Below are positions 3,985 through 35,796 of a DNA stretch of 64,000 nt, piece after piece (within the stretch, counting starts at the first letter, position 1; the number at the start of each line of letters is the position of its first letter). The notes under the pieces are model-generated. The model was not told the DNA's origin. It made no database searches and saw only the letters and a list, made by a program, of their open reading frames with translations. The DNA is from Escherichia phage nieznany. The stretch lies in sequence record NC_052659.1; one strand, given 5' to 3'. The translations under genes and the position numbers were made by a program.

Positions 3985-4538
3985 TGTTTGTGACGAGTGA
4001 CCGCCATTTCTGGCACGATAAAGTTCTTGATTTTCAGGCGCATACCCGCCCATTTTCTAGCTTGGAAGAAATGCACGAGGCGTATATTAAAGAGTGGAAC
4101 GCCTGTGCAACTAAACCTGGTGTTAAAATGTATCACTTGGGAGATTTCAGTTTTGGTCTTGAAGAACAGACAGAAGAGATCTGCAAGCGTTTGCAAGGTG
4201 ATATCACCTTCATCGTGGGGAACCATGACCGCAGCTATACCCGTTCCGTAATGGAGAAGTACGGGCGTGTTGTTTGGTACGACGAAGTGAAATACCAGAA
4301 ACATTTCTTTGTATTGAGTCATTATCCTATGCTTACTTGGAACAAATCTCATAAAGGAAGTATTATGCTTCATGGTCATGAACATGGGAATCTTGTTCAT
4401 TTAGAGCACGAACGTGGAAAAACTATGGATGTTGGTGTAGATGTTCATGGTCGTTTCTTACATTTTGATGAAATCATTGAAGTGATGAAAGACCGTCCTA
4501 TGCGTATGGATCATCGTAAATTTAGATCGGAGGAATAA
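3984..4538 (+). CDS. calcineurin-like metallophosphoesterase
   Basis: Motifs DRHFWHD, GNHD, GHEH typical of metallophosphatase fold. Confidence 0.6.
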   Translation: MFVTSDRHFWHDKVLDFQAHTRPFSSLEEMHEAYIKEWNACATKPGVKMYHLGDFSFGLEEQTEEICKRLQGDITFIVGNHDRSYTRSVMEKYGRVVWYDEVKYQKHFFVLSHYPMLTWNKSHKGSIMLHGHEHGNLVHLEHERGKTMDVGVDVHGRFLHFDEIIEVMKDRPMRMDHRKFRSEE

Positions 4539-4680
4539 TAATGGTAACAATGTATGTACTGTTTGCAATTTTTTATTCTGGTAATGGTAATTCAACTTAT
4601 CAGGCAGAGTTTAACTCGCAAGGGGCTTGCATTATGGCGTTAGAGGAAGGTAAGCGTGTGAAGATTTTTGACCGTGGCAT

Positions 4681-5126: not shown

Positions 5127-5347
5127 GTACAGCTATTTATGTAAGAGGCGTGAGTGAACACGAGCAATGTCTTTTCTCTTTTGGGGAAGGTGTAGAGATT
5201 GAGGATATGTATCAAGAGATTTGCGAAGTCTTGGATAATGAAGGATTCACTATTGTAAACTCTTTTCTTGTTACATCATCTGAATATTTAGAGGTTGATT
5301 TAACACAGATGATGTTTAGTGTCCAAGAAACAGTTTTTGATTGGTAA
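5123..5347 (+). CDS. hypothetical protein
   Basis: 74 aa ORF with ATGA overlap. Confidence 0.35.
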   Translation: MSTAIYVRGVSEHEQCLFSFGEGVEIEDMYQEICEVLDNEGFTIVNSFLVTSSEYLEVDLTQMMFSVQETVFDW

Positions 5348-5356
5348 GGAGAAATA

Positions 5357-6472
5357 ATGCTGCAATTAAATCCTACATTGTATGGTAAAGACACCAAAGG
5401 TAATATTAAAGAATGGTCTGTCTATACGGATGGTGCAACTGTTACAGTTGGTCATGGTCGTCTTGGTGGGAAGATTACTACGAAATCCTATGAAGCTGAA
5501 GCAAAAAACATTGGTCGTTCCAATGAAACAACACCGGAAGAACAAGCTGAACTTGAAGCTTTTGCCAAATGGACAAAACAGTTAAAGAATGGCTATTATA
5601 AAACAAAAGAAGAAGCTGAAAACCATGTTCCTTCCACACCAATGAAATGCCAGGATTATAAAGATTATCCTGAAAGGGTTGTGTTCCCTGGTTATGCACA
5701 ATACAAACTGAACGGGTTACGTTCTATGATTAACATGAAAGGGGAGTGTTTATCAAAAGCTGGGGAAGTGTACAACCTGCCACCTCATTGGAAAGGTATT
5801 CCAAACTTTATTAGTGAAGTTGTTGGTCATCCTCTTGATGGTGAAGTGTTTGCTGGGTTAGGTGTCCTTAGTCTGCAACAAATTAACAGTGCTTGGAAGA
5901 AGCATAATGCAAATACACCTTTGCTGAATTATTACGTATACGATATTCCAGTTCCAGGTCTACCGTTTGAAAAACGTGTTGATGCTCTTGCTGCTCTTAA
6001 GGCAGTAGTTGAAGATTATGGTCTTGACGAGCTTATTTGTGTAGTTCATACAGAGTATATTGAAAACCAAGAACAGTTTGATGCTTTCTATGAAAAAGCT
6101 TTACTTGAGAAAGCTGAAGGTGTAGTATATCGTAATGCTCACGGAGTTTACGAATTTGATAAACGTTCTTATGACGTTATTAAACGTAAGCCTCGCCACA
6201 CCCTTGAAGTTAAAGTAATAAATTCAAAAAGTGATAAAAATGGTGATGGAGTGTTGACAGGTGAGATGGAAAATGGTAAAGTAGTCGAATTCTTAATGCG
6301 TAAAGATGCTCATGAGACTATCAATTATCGTAAAGCAGAGAATGCTTCTACCTTGATTAATCAGTTCGTTGAAATAGAGTATGAAGAATTTTCAGATGAA
6401 GGTATTCCAACAAAACCTGTTGGTGTTCGTATTCGAGAAATGATCCCAGGCACTTGGGAACCAGCAGAATAA
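5357..6472 (+). CDS. ATP-dependent DNA ligase-like nucleotidyltransferase
   Basis: Motif I variant KLNGLR (KxDGxR with D->N), motif III LDGEVF, motif V EGVVYR, KRK near motif VI; 371 aa like small phage ligases. Confidence 0.6.
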   Translation: MLQLNPTLYGKDTKGNIKEWSVYTDGATVTVGHGRLGGKITTKSYEAEAKNIGRSNETTPEEQAELEAFAKWTKQLKNGYYKTKEEAENHVPSTPMKCQDYKDYPERVVFPGYAQYKLNGLRSMINMKGECLSKAGEVYNLPPHWKGIPNFISEVVGHPLDGEVFAGLGVLSLQQINSAWKKHNANTPLLNYYVYDIPVPGLPFEKRVDALAALKAVVEDYGLDELICVVHTEYIENQEQFDAFYEKALLEKAEGVVYRNAHGVYEFDKRSYDVIKRKPRHTLEVKVINSKSDKNGDGVLTGEMENGKVVEFLMRKDAHETINYRKAENASTLINQFVEIEYEEFSDEGIPTKPVGVRIREMIPGTWEPAE

Positions 6473-28000: not shown

Positions 28001-28330
28001 ATGGAAATTACTACAGAACAAGCCCTTATCGACGAGGGTCGTAAAATCTTAGAAAAGCATTTAGGGGAGATTCATAAAACTCCTGGCTATTTGGGTTGGA
28101 GAATTGTTGAAGCTGTAGATTTCCTTCCTCGTAACAGTAAAAGCGTCGAAATGCGATCTCTTTTCTTATTAGTAAAGGTGGATGGGGATACACCTTTTAA
28201 AGATGCCGCAGAGCATATTGAAAAAGTTGAAGAGAAAGCTTATGCAGAATTTGCAGATCTTGTTTTAGAACAAGAGATTGAAGGAAAGGTAAATATTTTT
28301 ATTTTCTTAGATTTTGAGGAGGATAAGTGA
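28001..28330 (+). CDS. hypothetical protein
   Basis: GGAGGAAGGA then ATG. Confidence 0.45.
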   Translation: MEITTEQALIDEGRKILEKHLGEIHKTPGYLGWRIVEAVDFLPRNSKSVEMRSLFLLVKVDGDTPFKDAAEHIEKVEEKAYAEFADLVLEQEIEGKVNIFIFLDFEEDK

Positions 28331-29070
28331 TCATACATAGAGAAATTACTGTTAAAAGCGATCAAGATCTTTTTATAATTGGAGATCTACATGGTTGTTA
28401 TAATTTGTATGAAAAAGGAAAGGCAAAGTTAGGTATCCGAGATACAGATGTGGTTGTATCTTTAGGAGATCTTACTGACCGTGGAAAGCAAAACTTTCGT
28501 TGTGTTTTAGAATTTACTCGTAAACACAATCGCTACGCTATTCGTGGAAATCATGAAGACATGATGATTAAAGGTATGCTGGAAGGAGATCGTAGCTACT
28601 TCGAGTGTTGGTATCAAAATGGAGGATATACAGTCCTTGAAGAATGTGGTGAAGAAGGAGCTACAGCCTTAGCAATGATGACAGAAGATTTACCTGTTGT
28701 TCTCATTGTTAACTACAGAGGCATGAAACTTGCGTTTATTCATGGTGGGTATCCATCTTCTTTGGAATATCTCCCTATAACAGATATTCCAGAATACACT
28801 TTGAAGATGACAAAAACACAAGAAAACCGTTTTGCTGAAGCACTTATGTGGGACAGAGATATGGTGGACTGTGCTAAAGAGGGAATGAAACTTCCTGTTG
28901 TGATGGGTGTGGACTATGTGTTTCATGGACACTCTTATGTAAAAACACCTATTATCAATGCGAATCGTGTTTATATGGATACTGGATCTGTGTTCAATAA
29001 TAACTTAACATTTGCTTATTTCGATATGGACGGTGGTCTTCAATTTTATTCAACTCTTGAGGAGGATTAA
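28327..29070 (+). CDS. Ser/Thr protein phosphatase (PPP-family metallophosphatase, lambda-phosphatase-like)
   Basis: GDLHGC, GDLTDRG, RGNHED motifs. Confidence 0.7.
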   Translation: MIIHREITVKSDQDLFIIGDLHGCYNLYEKGKAKLGIRDTDVVVSLGDLTDRGKQNFRCVLEFTRKHNRYAIRGNHEDMMIKGMLEGDRSYFECWYQNGGYTVLEECGEEGATALAMMTEDLPVVLIVNYRGMKLAFIHGGYPSSLEYLPITDIPEYTLKMTKTQENRFAEALMWDRDMVDCAKEGMKLPVVMGVDYVFHGHSYVKTPIINANRVYMDTGSVFNNNLTFAYFDMDGGLQFYSTLEED

Positions 29071-29385: not shown

Positions 29386-29967
29386 ATGGCAGAATTGTTT
29401 TATACGGGAGTTGGAAGTAGAGACATCTCCGAAGAAGAGTGGGCTTTGATGGTAGGCATAGGGAAATGGCTTTCCAACCTTGGATTTAAATTAAGGTCTG
29501 GGAAGGCAGAGGGTAGTGATTCTGCTTTTGAAACAGGTGTCCAAGAGTCTGAAAATCCTACCAACAAGGAGATTTATGTACCTTGGGAAAATTTCAAAGG
29601 TAATCAGATTCCAGGTGATGTTATTGTTCTTGCAAAACCAGATACAATGAACTATGCTATCTCTGTGCAATGGATCAAAGATGTTCACCCAGCTTATGAA
29701 AAGCTTAAGCAGGGCGCTAGAAAATTGCACCAACGTAATGTGCATCAGGTGTTAGGTAAAGATTTGGAGAATCCTGCTCCATCATGTTTCTTGTTGGCTT
29801 GTGCCGATACTGATAAACACGGAGATGCAAAAGGCGGAACAGCTACGGCTTGGAAGATAGCTAAAGCAAATAATGTTCCTTGTTTAAACATTCGTGGGAA
29901 AACAAAACAAGAGATTTACGATTTTCTACGACCTTTGGTAATGAGGGCAATAACAAGTGATTCCTAA
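29386..29967 (+). CDS. DprA/SLOG-like Rossmann-fold protein (tentative)
   Basis: TGVGSRDIS and SGKAEGSDSAFETG resemble DprA GTR...SGxAxGID motif. Confidence 0.35.
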   Translation: MAELFYTGVGSRDISEEEWALMVGIGKWLSNLGFKLRSGKAEGSDSAFETGVQESENPTNKEIYVPWENFKGNQIPGDVIVLAKPDTMNYAISVQWIKDVHPAYEKLKQGARKLHQRNVHQVLGKDLENPAPSCFLLACADTDKHGDAKGGTATAWKIAKANNVPCLNIRGKTKQEIYDFLRPLVMRAITSDS

Positions 29968-30469: not shown

Positions 30470-30738
30470 CAAGTTTTGAAAGTAACTTCGTTACCGCTTG
30501 GGAAGCTTGGGATGAAATGGGTGTTGGTGAACTTTATTTTTACAATGTAACACTACGCCCAGAGTATGCTTACCTGGTACCAGAAGGTACAGTTCAAATT
30601 GGTATGTATTTGTCTTCTCAAGACGGTGTTGTTCAATTTGAGTTTTATTCAAACACAACGGACAACGAATTTACATATCGTGCATTTCATGTCACCATGT
30701 CTTTAGGAGAGGAGAAATTTTATGACGACCAAGTTTAA
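30448..30738 (+). CDS. hypothetical protein
   Basis: 96 aa ORF. Confidence 0.4.
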   Translation: MAEFGSVTSFESNFVTAWEAWDEMGVGELYFYNVTLRPEYAYLVPEGTVQIGMYLSSQDGVVQFEFYSNTTDNEFTYRAFHVTMSLGEEKFYDDQV

Positions 30739-30919
30739 AACAGTAGAAGAAGCCGTAAAAGCAGCTTATGATGCTTTAGCGGAAGCAGAGCAGTTAGCAG
30801 ACGAGACTGGAGAAGGTTTCCGTTTCTCCCCTGAATATGGGATGGGTGGTTATTATGATCCAGAAGATGAAAATGAGAATACTGGGACAAATTGGCATCC
30901 ATCTTCTTTAAGTTGTTAA
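30722..30919 (+). CDS. small acidic protein ending in WHPSSLSC (paralog family, C-terminal Cys)
   Basis: Shares C-terminal motif with 31206..31424 and 31434..31706. Confidence 0.4.
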   Translation: MTTKFKTVEEAVKAAYDALAEAEQLADETGEGFRFSPEYGMGGYYDPEDENENTGTNWHPSSLSC

Positions 30920-30930
30920 TAGGAGGTAAA

Positions 30931-31206
30931 GTGGGAATCGAAGATATCAAAGGTTATAAGGCGCATACTGACGATAAGATTGGCAAGGTTAACGCTATTA
31001 AAGATGCAGAAGAGCGTTTAGGTTTAATCTTCAAAGCTTTAGAGGAAGAGTATTGTGAAGCATATCATGGGTCTTTTGACGGCACAGAAAAAGAATTAGA
31101 TGTTGCATACGAGCGTATTGATCAAATCCGTTGTGCTATTAAACATTTAAAAGAAGCTAGTATGTGGGCTTGTCGTTCAGTTTTCCAACCGGAGGAGAAA
31201 TACTAA
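30931..31206 (+). CDS. hypothetical protein (GTG start)
   Basis: AGGAGG then GTG 30931. Confidence 0.35.
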   Translation: MGIEDIKGYKAHTDDKIGKVNAIKDAEERLGLIFKALEEEYCEAYHGSFDGTEKELDVAYERIDQIRCAIKHLKEASMWACRSVFQPEEKY

Positions 31207-31424
31207 TGAGTGATCGTAATGTTGAAGAATTAACTGAAAAAGCCCAAGCTATTATGGCTTTAGTGGACGAACTTACAAAAGAAGCTGAAGATGCTGGTTT
31301 TGGTCTTAGTTTAGAAGATAACGCAATCTGTTTTGAGGATTGGCAATCCTCTTCTTGTTATGGTGAAGGTGATGATGGTTTCGTCGTTAATTCTCAAGGC
31401 GTTTGGCACAGTAGTAGCTGTTAA
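31206..31424 (+). CDS. small acidic protein ending in WHSSSC (paralog family)
   Basis: GGAGGAG then ATG 31206. Confidence 0.4.
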   Translation: MSDRNVEELTEKAQAIMALVDELTKEAEDAGFGLSLEDNAICFEDWQSSSCYGEGDDGFVVNSQGVWHSSSC

Positions 31425-31433
31425 GGAGAGATT

Positions 31434-31706
31434 GTGGAGTCTGAAGGCGAACTGCTGATAAAAAAGAAAGTTAAAGAGATGGAACAAGCACAAAGAAAGT
31501 TTCGTAAGGAAATCGAAGAACTTTGTGAACAGTTTCAGGAACAAGCTTGGATAGGTGACTACGGTAACGGAGAAACTTATTACCCTACAGGAACGCCAGC
31601 CGCAGATCACTATATTGATTTCATTTGTGAAGATTATGGTGTAGAGTTGGATGAAAATGGTTTAACCACAAGAGGTGTTTGGATCTCTTCTTCCTCAATG
31701 TGTTAG
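31434..31706 (+). CDS. small acidic protein ending in WISSSSMC (paralog family)
   Basis: 90 aa ORF. Confidence 0.4.
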   Translation: MESEGELLIKKKVKEMEQAQRKFRKEIEELCEQFQEQAWIGDYGNGETYYPTGTPAADHYIDFICEDYGVELDENGLTTRGVWISSSSMC

Positions 31707-31726
31707 TAAATAATAACCCGCTTCGG

Positions 31727-31776
31727 CGGGTTTTTTATTGACAGAAATCTGGAAGCTTGATAAACTTAACCTATCA
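31727..31776 (+). promoter_or_regulatory. terminator hairpin CCCGCTTCGGCGGG + T6 followed by promoter TTGACA-17-TAAACT
   Basis: Seen in sequence. Confidence 0.5.
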
Positions 31777-31796: not shown

Positions 31797-32738
31797 ATGG
31801 TGTTAATTGGTAGCCGTGCATTACAAATTCATGCTATGGATATGGGAAAAGACTTGTATCGCCCTTGTGTAGATTTAGATTACCTCTGTACAGAACAAGA
31901 ATGGGAAGAATTATCAAAAATGTTCTCTCAAGATGAGTTTGTTGAACTTGTAGAGCGTAAAGGGAACAAGGGCCATGTCAAAATGATAGCTGGTGCACAT
32001 TTGGAATACGATATTGCTTCTCAAGGAGATAGCACAGAAGCTTTGATTAGTTATTGTGAAGACTCTGATGATATTCGTCGAACTTACGCTGGACACGTTG
32101 TTGCTCCTTTAGATGTGCTCTACCTTCTTAAAATGAGTCATCGTTTTAAAAAGGATAGTCCTCACTTCTTTAAAACTATGAAAGATATTCATTTCATGCG
32201 ATCACTAGGCGCAAAGATCCCAGAAAATCTTAAGAGTATTTATGAGTTGCGTGAGAAAGAAACATACACTTACTCTCATCCAAACTTAAACGTGAGAAGT
32301 AAAGACTTCTTTAAAGGTGATGAGGTTCCGTATGTTTATGATCATGACTCTATTCATGAAGCAATCGCAGTAATGGATGCTCCAGCATATAAATCTTATA
32401 TGAAAGATGGAAGTGAAGTTATGACCAGCAAAGAAAAGTTTTTTGCTCAACCAAAACATGTGCGCCTGTTAGGTGTTTATGAAGAAGCGTGTGTTTTGGC
32501 TTTGGAACGTTCACAAATTCCTTTCGGTGAAGAGATCGGAGGTCCAACCCCTAAGCAAAGTTTTATGATGGCTTTATCTAAAGTTTGCACATCTATCACT
32601 AGTGGTTGGTTTAGGGAATATGCTTGGGAGAACTTTTATATTGTTACTAAACTATATGAAAACATGGGTGAAAACGACTATGTTGAACGTTTTAAAGCTA
32701 ATCGACATGTAGTTAAGCCTTTTGAAGGAGGTTATTAA
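31797..32738 (+). CDS. hypothetical protein; possible nucleotidyltransferase-fold (GS...DxD) - weak
   Basis: N-terminal LIGSRALQ...CVDLDYL loosely resembles a minimal NTase motif; 313 aa. Confidence 0.4.
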   Translation: MVLIGSRALQIHAMDMGKDLYRPCVDLDYLCTEQEWEELSKMFSQDEFVELVERKGNKGHVKMIAGAHLEYDIASQGDSTEALISYCEDSDDIRRTYAGHVVAPLDVLYLLKMSHRFKKDSPHFFKTMKDIHFMRSLGAKIPENLKSIYELREKETYTYSHPNLNVRSKDFFKGDEVPYVYDHDSIHEAIAVMDAPAYKSYMKDGSEVMTSKEKFFAQPKHVRLLGVYEEACVLALERSQIPFGEEIGGPTPKQSFMMALSKVCTSITSGWFREYAWENFYIVTKLYENMGENDYVERFKANRHVVKPFEGGY

Positions 32739-34522: not shown

Positions 34523-34996
34523 ATGTTTCAAGTAAATGTCAATGTGCATAATAGTTACTCTGATTGTGAGACGTGTGGCTATAATTCATCTAATGTTGTT
34601 CGTATTAGTGGCGATTTAGGAGAAGCTTCTTTTGGAGAAGAAGCAAGTTGCTTTAGTGGTATGGATGCAGAATGGAACGATATTGCACATTGGTTGGTGA
34701 GCAAACTAAAAGAAAAAGAGAAACCATTTCCTACTCTGCTTGATCGTTCTCTTGTAGAAGATGCAGGTAAAGCATATGCAGACTATGCGTATGCAGACGG
34801 GAAATATTTGGAAGATGATAAGGCTAACCATTTGCTTTATGTTTACTATGAAGCTGAATCTGCCTACGATAATTATTATAGCATGTCTAACATCCTACGT
34901 CTGTTTGCAGAGTTTGATATTTATTTCGAAGTAGAATTTTCAGAAGATGATACTTACGAATATGATTCTTATGATCCATTTGAGGAGGACGAATAA
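34523..34996 (+). CDS. hypothetical highly acidic protein
   Basis: 157 aa ORF, D/E/Y-rich C-terminus. Confidence 0.45.
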   Translation: MFQVNVNVHNSYSDCETCGYNSSNVVRISGDLGEASFGEEASCFSGMDAEWNDIAHWLVSKLKEKEKPFPTLLDRSLVEDAGKAYADYAYADGKYLEDDKANHLLYVYYEAESAYDNYYSMSNILRLFAEFDIYFEVEFSEDDTYEYDSYDPFEEDE

Positions 34997-35796
34997 TGCC
35001 AAGACGTGTATATTTTATTAGTGGTGCGGGACTAAGTGCTGACAGCGGAATCCAAACATTTCGCACAGAAACAGATTCTGGAAAGGCATTATGGGATGAA
35101 TACGATTTAACAGAAGTCTGTGACATTTTCAACTTCCGTGACGGTTATCAGCAAGAACAGGGTATTCCTGATGCTATGGGTGGCTTAGATGTGGAAGGAT
35201 ATAACCTCTACCGTAAAACTCACGACTTCTACAATAAACGTCGCGTGGAATTAGAGAAAGTTGACCCGAATCCAGCACATCTTCAGATTGGAGAATGGTT
35301 CGAAAAATACGGTGCAGAAAGGATTATTAACATTACTACTAACGTTGACGATCTATTAGAACGCGCTGGAATCGATAGAGAAGAAATATTGCACGTTCAT
35401 GGTTTCTTGCCAGAAGTTGTTGTTGATAACAAAATTATCAAAGATGTGGGTTACGCAGCTATTGATGTAGACGATTACAAATATGTGAAGCCTAATGTGG
35501 TGTTTTTTGGTGAGAATGCACCACTCTACACAGACATGTATCACAAACTGGATCAACTAACATCACAAGATATGGTTATCGTTGTAGGCTGCTCTAACCA
35601 AGTAATCAACTTCAACTGGGAACTCTTCCCTGCCCTGAATATTGGGGTTAAGATGGTTGTAGTTAACCCAGGTTTGAATTTTGTAGAACAAACTCTCTAC
35701 GAAGAACGTGGAGTGCTTGTCTACCGAGAGAAAGCAGGAACAGTCTTCAGTGATGAAGGCTTTATCAAAATGGTTGAAGACCATTTAAACAAATAA
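34996..35796 (+). CDS. Sir2 (sirtuin)-family NAD-dependent protein, lacking the zinc-ribbon cysteines
   Basis: GAGLSADSGIQTFR (GAGIS..GIPxFR), TTNVDDLLERAG (TQNID), catalytic HVHG, VVFFGE, VVGCS. Confidence 0.7.
   Translation: MPRRVYFISGAGLSADSGIQTFRTETDSGKALWDEYDLTEVCDIFNFRDGYQQEQGIPDAMGGLDVEGYNLYRKTHDFYNKRRVELEKVDPNPAHLQIGEWFEKYGAERIINITTNVDDLLERAGIDREEILHVHGFLPEVVVDNKIIKDVGYAAIDVDDYKYVKPNVVFFGENAPLYTDMYHKLDQLTSQDMVIVVGCSNQVINFNWELFPALNIGVKMVVVNPGLNFVEQTLYEERGVLVYREKAGTVFSDEGFIKMVEDHLNK

Follow-up and report, generated by a model that had tools for sequence, protein, structure and literature searches.

Tail-bearing genes and their setting

The genes described here lie in a stretch of 64,000 nucleotides from Escherichia phage nieznany (NC_052659.1), hereafter the window. 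Three small open reading frames (ORFs), A, C and D, encode acidic proteins that share a C-terminal tail with a cysteine as the last residue, and they are followed by a gene for a predicted nucleotidyltransferase (NTase). The earlier note on this DNA had described three neighbouring small ORFs with these endings and had proposed that the tail hints at a shared modification or interaction. The three plus-strand ORFs and their endings were present as described (Table 1), and their products are indeed strongly acidic, with isoelectric points (pI) of 4.1 (A), 4.05 (C) and 4.4 (D) and net charges of -10 to -13. Only C and D are true neighbours, as A and C are split by the gene of a 91-residue Acb2/Tad1-hairpin protein. 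This Acb2 gene and the downstream enzyme, which form the most informative context, were absent from the earlier note. ORF A, the Acb2 gene, ORF C and ORF D are densely packed, the start codon of ORF C overlaps the preceding stop codon (TAATG), and a Shine-Dalgarno-like GGAG/AGGAG can be read 5' of the start of each tail-bearing ORF.

All three ORFs match phrog_899, a phage protein family whose function is annotated as unknown, at profile positions ~148-221, which correspond to its C-terminal end; by these matches they are true paralogs. No further paralog was found in the window with the family hidden Markov model (HMM). When all six frames of the 64 kb were searched for W.[SP]SS.{0,2}C, four matches emerged, namely the three ORF termini and an internal WQSSSC in ORF C. 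The segment 29300-33200 was 97-99% identical to ~60 Escherichia phages of the genus Phapecoctavirus, with phage AV126 as the best match (98.8% identity). Phapecoctavirus belongs to the Stephanstirmvirinae, myoviruses of roughly 150 kb. In the RefSeq record of phage ukendt, the tail-protein and enzyme genes are annotated 'hypothetical protein', while the Acb2 homolog is labelled 'vs.4 gene product'. The latter, which we take to be an anti-CBASS (cyclic-oligonucleotide-based anti-phage signalling system) nucleotide sponge, is a context gene and not a member of the tail family.

Table 1. Features of the tail-gene and nucleotidyltransferase region, in window positions.
Feature	Position	Strand	Description	Basis
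NinI-like Ser/Thr phosphoesterase	28327-29070	+	calcineurin-type; ~2.7 kb upstream of the module	Pfam Metallophos, E 3e-13
DprA-like (SLOG-type) protein	29386-29967	+	flanks the region	phrog_768, E 2e-62
ORF A	30722-30919	+	65 amino acids, ends NWHPSSLSC; 'YGMGG' subtype	ORF list; sequence; phrog_899, E 6.1e-13
ORF A tail motif WHPSSLSC	30893-30916	+	stop codon immediately after	motif scan
Acb2/Tad1-hairpin protein	30931-31206	+	91 amino acids, GTG start; T4 vs.4 homolog	PF24729, E 1.3e-16, 60.9 bits (cutoff 27)
ORF C	31206-31424	+	72 amino acids, ends GVWHSSSC; 'double-motif' subtype	phrog_899, E 9.5e-6
ORF C internal motif WQSSSC	31341-31358	+	followed by YGEG; not C-terminal	motif scan
ORF C terminal tail WHSSSC	31404-31421	+	short variant W-x-S-S-S-C	motif scan; variant census
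ORF D	31434-31706	+	90 amino acids, GTG start, ends GVWISSSSMC; 'GDYGNGETYYP' subtype	phrog_899, E 5.1e-14
ORF D tail motif WISSSSMC	31680-31703	+		motif scan
Intrinsic-terminator-like hairpin	31715-31740	+	AACCCGC-TTCG-GCGGGTT followed by a T-run; 3' of ORF D
Sigma-70-like promoter	31738-31766	+	TTGACA, 17-nt spacer, TAAACT, TG before the -10 (extended -10); 5' of the enzyme gene	consensus match only
Predicted MenT/AbiEii-like nucleotidyltransferase	31797-32738	+	313 amino acids	Pfam DUF7277 (residues 1-87) and DUF7275 (residues 107-297)
Sir2-family protein	34996-35796	+	flanks the region	PF02146, E 1e-20

Association with a nucleotidyltransferase gene

The same order of genes was observed in other phages. 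In Mosigvirus ChristianSchoenbein, three tandem paralogs (ending AWVSSSALC, GWVASSHTC and GWVSSSYSC) precede a 318-residue homolog of the 313-residue ORF of the window, and of the six additional phages inspected at first, five had tail genes followed by the enzyme gene: one phage each of Yersinia, Stenotrophomonas and Acinetobacter (the last of these T4-like), an Erwinia jumbo phage and a four-paralog Otagovirus of Pseudomonas. Eighty IMG/VR loci were retrieved with the 313-residue protein, and 76 of them contained one to four motif-ending ORFs; 168 of these 172 ORFs were on the same strand as the enzyme gene, and nearly all were within ~2 kb upstream of it. A further 36 loci were seeded with the small proteins, using a subfamily alignment (the full family alignment holds no conserved 7-mer), and the enzyme gene was located 0.1-1.6 kb downstream in 34. 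The two exceptions were a contig ending 350 bp past the small genes and, in a 305-kb jumbo phage, a second locus, the enzyme gene of this phage being located elsewhere. Across 93 non-redundant loci, a median of 308 bp separated the last small ORF from the start of the enzyme gene.

The association was also directional. When all stop-to-stop ORFs within 2.5 kb on each side of the enzyme gene were counted, 262 of 1305 ended in cysteine upstream, against 24 of 1076 downstream. An upstream tail ORF was present in 30 of 32 enzyme clusters (single linkage, 60% identity), and the apparent exceptions comprised one cluster with the divergent tail WTPSGCSY and another in which the enzyme gene has a family member on its opposite side. 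The window follows this upstream, co-oriented arrangement, with ORF D ending at 31706 and the enzyme gene starting at 31797. The phages concerned belong to the Straboviridae, Stephanstirmvirinae, Otagovirus, Menderavirus and several jumbo phages. Representative genomes covering 185,579 prokaryotic species yielded only five enzyme loci, all of them on contigs of metagenome-assembled genomes, as against 734 phage records; the module is virtually absent from bacterial chromosomes. These observations suggest that the small proteins and the downstream NTase form a two-part phage module. The shared modification or interaction proposed in the earlier note gains indirect support from this near-obligate linkage to one NTase gene, although it is still something that we infer.

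A looser relationship was also considered, in which the small proteins would be stand-alone effectors, such as nucleotide-signal sponges, acidic nucleic-acid mimics or defence inhibitors, and the enzyme would be co-inherited with them in a mobile accessory cassette. The Acb2 gene lies inside the array of the window, and 20 T4-like loci have an Acb2 homolog downstream of the enzyme gene, at a distance of 5-6 kb. The size of 65-90 residues, the acidity and the phage-only distribution are typical of anti-defence proteins, and the Gly-rich YGxG loop, the aromatic residues and the Ser-Ser pair could form a phosphate or base pocket. Known sponges (Acb2, Tad1, Tad2, Acb4, Sequestin, Lockin) are likewise small phage-only proteins in accessory early regions, and a preprint describes their genes as clustering or fusing with one another (bioRxiv 10.1101/2025.07.12.664507). 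Nevertheless, nothing in the passage of that preprint on Sequestin (PF21825) matched the tail family, no Pfam or PADLOC match to known sponge families was obtained, and ORFs A, C and D gave no match to PF24729 at E <= 1. The strong negative charge is shared with the acidic mimics Ocr, ArdA, Arn and Gp5.9; no sequence or fold similarity to these was found, and the small proteins gave no fold match to known mimics or sponges in general. The YGxG loop is also missing in many members, and known sponges have no partner enzyme gene. A two-way, directional and near-obligate linkage across unrelated phages is hard to explain by hitch-hiking, and we consider this reading quite unlikely.

The presence of several paralogs beside one enzyme, with only the tail and the helix in common, might also be expected of specificity adaptors. 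Their tail would dock on the enzyme and their variable body would bring a host target for nucleotidylation. The D-like, YGMGG-like and double-motif types are kept between Phapecoctavirus and T4-like phages, which implies distinct and stable roles. However, there is no known candidate for the target, docking motifs rarely need an invariant terminal cysteine and a Ser-Ser pair, and no fusion of small protein and enzyme was detected among 120 enzyme homologs or the longer family members. A role as adaptors is thus decidedly unlikely.

Conservation and variants of the C-terminal tail

The earlier note regarded the tail as conserved, and this was borne out in related phages to a degree that the window by itself could not reveal. 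Word-indexed searches identified close relatives as well as proteins with 40-57% identity in T4-like phages, among them homologs of ORF D from Edwardsiella phage PEi20 and Enterobacter phage Entb_45; they all end in WISSS-x-MC, and the homologs of ORF A at 58-94% identity also retain the tail. A tblastn search with one T4-like homolog as query found the small family in 445 phage records. A profile search against 1.84 billion cluster representatives returned 295 clusters (50% identity clusters, E <= 1e-3), with few exceptions of small proteins; among the 150 matches listed, nearly all were 65-175 residues long and aligned through their last residue. Cysteine was the last residue in 161 of 169 proteins, and in 155 of these 161 a tryptophan was located exactly seven residues earlier. 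In an alignment of 140 sequences with a mean column identity of only 17%, W83, S86 and C90 were invariant and S87 was present in 139. The family consensus is W-x-(S/P/A)-S-S-x-x-C-COOH, so that the motif given in the earlier note stands as a conserved feature but not in its exact form, ORF C carrying a rarer short version. In all three ORFs of the window, the tryptophan precedes the last cysteine by 5-7 residues, and Ser-Ser stands between the two.

An unbiased census of the Cys-ending ORFs upstream of the enzyme gene revealed the further variants W-x-x-S-S-C, W-x-S-S-x-C and W-x-S-S-S-x-x-x-C. A fixed Ser(-3)...Cys(0) spacing, which would hint at a lanthionine or aminovinyl-cysteine (AviCys) ring, was rejected: its apparent universality had been imposed by the search pattern, and the census showed a spacing of 0-3 residues. 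The residues of the YGxG loop (Y43, G44, G46 and Y49) were each more than 90% conserved in the 140-sequence alignment; the loop was nevertheless missing in roughly every second tail-bearing ORF beside the enzyme gene. In some tail-bearing ORFs of 146-172 residues, the body goes unrecognised by a family HMM built without the tail, but the end is still W-x-S-S-S-x-x-C. As judged from the alignment and the census, the tail is the only universal feature of the family: a tryptophan, one or two residues, Ser-Ser, 0-3 residues and a last cysteine.

Counterparts of the D-like, the A-like 'YGMGG' and the double-motif C types were all present in T4-like phages, the last of these at 4289-4522 of locus L002 and 5706-5951 of locus L048. 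The paralog types are therefore old and individually conserved rather than recent duplicates. In the double-motif type, an internal W-x-S-S-(S)-C is fused directly to a Y-G-E-G/D loop and a terminal tail is present in addition, which suggests that in the canonical fold the tail may touch the YGxG loop. A terminator-like hairpin called at 31335-31351 overlaps the coding stretch of the internal motif of ORF C and is probably fortuitous.

A few sequences departed from the terminal position of the cysteine. One or two residues follow it in family members P0066, P0067, P0089 and P0109 (...EGCS, ...QACR, ...DLCY and ...YNCS) and in the ORF at 5262-5480 of locus L083 (...SGCSY). A free cysteine carboxylate may not be absolutely required, or the genes extended past the cysteine may be decaying. 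A protein of 1695 residues (P0047) gave six matches to the family profile, all confined to the YGxG-loop region (positions 33-58), and has no terminal cysteine; it could be an unrelated repeat protein with a common Gly/Tyr loop.

Predicted structure of the small proteins

The AlphaFold2 (AF2) model of ORF D had a mean predicted local distance difference test (pLDDT) score of 95.9. It shows a long N-terminal amphipathic helix, a beta-strand at residues 82-85 and ordered residues 86-90, and the tail domain scored 92-98. The small, paralogous and N-terminally helical nature of the proteins, as claimed in the earlier note, is supported by this model and by the phrog_899 matches. The tail does follow a conserved helical part, but it is ordered in the model rather than a floppy appendage. 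Frame misassignment was ruled out as the origin of the motif by the Shine-Dalgarno sequences, the protein-level conservation in distant phages and the pLDDT of 96. A profile search of the PDB with the small proteins gave no match. The predicted fold is novel and has no solved relative.

The folded state of the tail bears on a possible role as precursors of ribosomally synthesised and post-translationally modified peptides (RiPPs). An acidic helical leader would then precede a Ser/Cys core that is dehydrated and cyclised, in a lanthionine- or AviCys-like manner, or cleaved. The acidic helical N-terminal part and the Ser-rich C-terminus ending in cysteine resemble such precursors, as does the presence of several precursor-like genes per enzyme, which is known from prochlorosin-type clusters. 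ORF C also had a sub-threshold NCBIfam match to the class IV lanthipeptide family SflA (E 0.11, 12.4 bits against a cutoff of 25), which is most likely noise. However, a tail within a confidently folded domain leaves no free core peptide, and the distance from serine to cysteine is not fixed. The partner enzyme is an NTase and no known RiPP dehydratase. In addition, no lanthipeptide synthetase, LanD-type decarboxylase, radical S-adenosylmethionine enzyme, protease or transporter was found among the Pfam-scanned ORFs at ~27.4-35.8 kb (four of them scanned only to E 0.001). A precursor function is therefore scarcely credible.

Metal binding had been named as an example in the earlier note, and metal, redox or sulfur chemistry was accordingly considered for the cysteine. 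In a helical oligomer, the terminal cysteines of several chains could together bind a metal or cluster, or the residue could bear a persulfide or thioester. The terminal cysteine is invariant and the sole conserved cysteine of the family, 82 of the 140 aligned members contain exactly one, and the amphipathic helix could drive oligomerisation. A single ligand per chain would be insufficient unless the protein is oligomeric, and the 140-sequence alignment revealed no conserved histidine, aspartate or second cysteine as ligands. Such chemistry also has no tie to the conserved NTase partner, which makes it a very improbable explanation.

The partner enzyme

The enzyme belongs to a large group (2212 related clusters at 90% identity), and a few of its phage records are annotated 'putative nucleotidyltransferase'. 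DUF7275 and DUF7277 were its only Pfam matches at E <= 0.1, with no DUF1814/AbiEii; PADLOC gave no match, and a sequence-profile search of the PDB gave no match to MenT. The best structural matches were the toxins MenT1, MenT3/TglT and MenT4, with which the DUF1814/AbiEii/MenT fold is shared. Across 62 homologs, G5-S6, D26, D28 and E70 were invariant, while R22 was the majority residue but stood outside both the invariant list and the list at >=90%. I-G5-S6 is followed, at a spacing of 19 residues, by R22-P-C-V-D26-L-D28, which fits hG[G/S]-x(n)-DhD with the R-x-x-x-D-x-D arrangement defined together with motifs I-IV for AbiEii/DUF1814 (PMC3985639). The invariant residues of the C-terminal two-thirds include K112, H115, H123, H161, H183-D184 and H187. 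Here K112-M-S-H-R-F-K-K119 loosely resembles motif III (KLxAaxxR), and K129-D130-I-H-F lacks the second aspartate of motif IV (+DxxD).

The protein is thus predicted to be a minimal NTase of the DNA polymerase beta (Pol-beta) fold, closest to MenT/AbiEii. Since the DUF1814 profile is unmatched and motifs III and IV can be made out only in part, we refer to it as MenT-like rather than as a family member. The invariant G5-S6, D26-x-D28 and E70 make the enzyme look active.

Gene order and enzyme fold are both shared with the MenAT/AbiE systems, such as MenA1-MenT1: the best structural matches are MenT toxins, the DUF1814-type R-x-x-x-D-x-D is kept in the enzyme, and one or more small genes lie upstream of the NTase gene, as in menA-menT and abiEi-abiEii. 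MenA antitoxins induce auto-phosphorylation of their cognate toxin. The small proteins could by analogy be regulators or antitoxins that inhibit or modulate a MenT-like NTase acting on host tRNA or on another nucleic acid or small molecule. They would bind the enzyme through the helix, place the acidic tail in the active site as a pseudo-substrate, or both, or they would induce auto-phosphorylation, and in this way time or limit a host-shutoff activity. In two lineages a NinI-like Ser/Thr phosphatase gene lies close to the module, as might be expected if the NTase is regulated by phosphorylation, and MenA1, a protein of 68 residues encoded upstream of MenT1, blocks the MenT1 active site (PMC10435456). 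We regard a regulatory role as the chief alternative to the function proposed below, possible, if on balance unlikely. A single inhibitor would be enough, yet one to four ancient and divergent paralogs accompany each enzyme. The module is found in virulent phages and essentially not in bacterial genomes, unlike toxin-antitoxin systems. The small proteins have no sequence similarity to MenA1 or AbiEi, and the PDB profile search with them was empty. MenA and AbiEi lack the W..SS..C-COOH tail, whereas the phage partners combine this invariant tail with a novel fold. So strict an invariance of Ser-Ser and a terminal cysteine is seen more often where residues react or become modified than where they form a docking surface. 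The enzyme itself falls outside DUF1814 by Pfam and differs from the MenAT/AbiE toxins in an extra conserved helical region of ~150 residues within DUF7275.

Proposed function of the module

In many unrelated large virulent phages, one enzyme gene is preceded immediately by one to four divergent tail genes on the same strand. As one enzyme gene accompanies several divergent proteins that share only a short invariant tag, the simplest reading is that the enzyme reads this tag, and the common tail would be the element that it recognises. In the version that we prefer, the enzyme would place a nucleotide, as a nucleoside monophosphate (NMP) and possibly several of them, on the hydroxyl group of a tail serine. 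The enzyme would thereby switch or arm the small proteins, which would be its substrates or carriers and whose variable bodies may direct each paralog to a different target in the infected cell. We put this forward tentatively, as the explanation that we favour: nucleotidylation of a tail serine would arm or switch a set of small acidic effectors. The module may serve host takeover or counter-defence, as the early-type region, the interleaved Acb2 gene and the near absence from bacterial chromosomes weakly indicate.

Nucleotidylation is favoured because Pol-beta-fold enzymes use hydroxyl groups, in some cases those of partner proteins, and because the tag contains two essentially invariant serines. 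NTases of this fold transfer NMP to hydroxyl groups, and those directed at proteins include MntA, which poly-AMPylates HepT, GlnD/GlnE, and CitX, which loads a serine of the small acidic protein CitD. In HepT-MntA (a type VII toxin-antitoxin system), GlnD/GlnE and CitX-CitD, a small Pol-beta NTase modifies a partner encoded beside it at a side-chain hydroxyl, and carriers such as CitD and the acyl carrier proteins (ACPs) are small and acidic with an invariant modified serine. The likeness to the phage module lies in a small Pol-beta-fold NTase next to a dedicated partner gene. HepT, PII, CitD and ACP show no sequence or fold similarity to the phage small proteins, and the phage acceptor would differ in being a C-terminal, Cys-ending tail carried by several paralogs per enzyme.

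Several points weigh against nucleotidylation of the tail. Everything past the genomic linkage is inference. The closest structural relatives of the enzyme, MenT1, MenT3 and MenT4, act on tRNA and not on proteins, and the small genes upstream of them encode inhibitors; on this point the evidence therefore favours a regulatory role. In the AF2 model, W-I-S-S forms a beta-strand within a sheet and the tail is ordered, so the tail serines may have a structural part and not be exposed as acceptors. With an overall pI of 5.7, the enzyme is itself acidic, like the small proteins. No tail ORF was present within 5 kb of the more distant homologs with DUF7275 only (from Streptomyces, Gordonia, Vibrio phi-ST2 and roseophage DSS3_VP1). 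ORF D of the window is separated from the enzyme gene by a terminator-like hairpin and a distinct promoter-like site, which speak against strict co-transcription here; the tail genes and the enzyme gene are adjacent but probably transcribed separately. Lastly, with 0-3 residues between Ser-Ser and the cysteine, no chemical role can be assigned to the terminal cysteine, and its requirement is explained by no model considered, including the one we favour.

An elaboration that we consider unlikely treats the tail as a covalent tag. The enzyme would build a nucleotide or short oligonucleotide on the serine in a protein-primed manner, or would activate the serine toward the cysteine, and the resulting conjugates or cross-linked proteins would act as decoys or inhibitors of host immunity based on nucleotides or tRNA. 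This would amount to a form of post-translational tagging not described before in viruses, in which one tag and one writer serve several carriers.

The module differs from known pairs of NTase and partner in being viral, in its multiple partners per enzyme, in the new partner fold and in the C-terminal W..SS..C tag. A further analogy is provided by the T4 internal proteins, which are diverse and basic and carry an N-terminal capsid-targeting tag that is cleaved by the prohead protease. In both cases, small phage proteins that are otherwise diverse and come from hyperplastic regions have a short terminal tag in common, and one phage machine reads it; here, in contrast, the tag is C-terminal, the proteins are strongly acidic and there is no link to the virion. 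Literature searches on DUF7275, phage MenT-like NTases, Cys-ending small phage proteins and DUF1814 in phages yielded no paper on either family or on the module.

Neighbouring genes

The phosphoesterase gene upstream of the module (Table 1) has a homolog 0.3-1.7 kb downstream of the enzyme gene in jumbo-phage loci (5645-6394 of locus L004; also L026, L029-L032, L035, L036 and L042). Such a gene was present near the module in 22 of ~120 loci. This proximity could be a coincidence, or the protein could be an eraser of a serine modification. In T4-like phages, an 83-residue Cys-containing ORF matching phrog_3723 (function unknown) lies between the last tail gene and the enzyme gene, for instance at 4340-4591 of locus L003, with similar ORFs in L053, L056, L061-L064, L066, L076 and L077; it is absent from the window.

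The distant DUF7275-type genes of roseophage DSS3_VP1 and a Streptomyces phage adjoin RNA ligase and metallophosphoesterase genes (L008 2265-3810 and L009 2824-3483), and a tail-bearing ORF of the Erwinia jumbo phage has a polynucleotide kinase gene directly 5' of it (L004 1-3). A link to RNA repair was rejected as a general feature, since RNA ligase or Pnkp was found in only 1-2 of ~120 loci. The region of the window is flanked by the DprA-like and Sir2-family genes, and two DNA methyltransferases are annotated nearby in phage ukendt. Altogether, the stretch has the appearance of an accessory or host-interaction region.

Implications

The module is common, and both of its halves are at present annotated as hypothetical. 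It occurs in widely used model and therapeutic phage groups, namely RB69 (small protein only), Mosigvirus phages of the BASEL collection, phAPEC8-like phages, Acinetobacter and Aeromonas T4-like phages and jumbo phages. The enzyme comes from a family whose members have so far been described as bacterial toxins that poison tRNA. If it writes on the tail, the module would represent a new kind of viral protein tagging. If the small proteins instead restrain the enzyme, phages would possess a toxin-antitoxin pair with multiple inhibitors, used during host takeover. Either outcome would provide a function for hundreds of hypothetical genes that adjoin known anti-defence genes.

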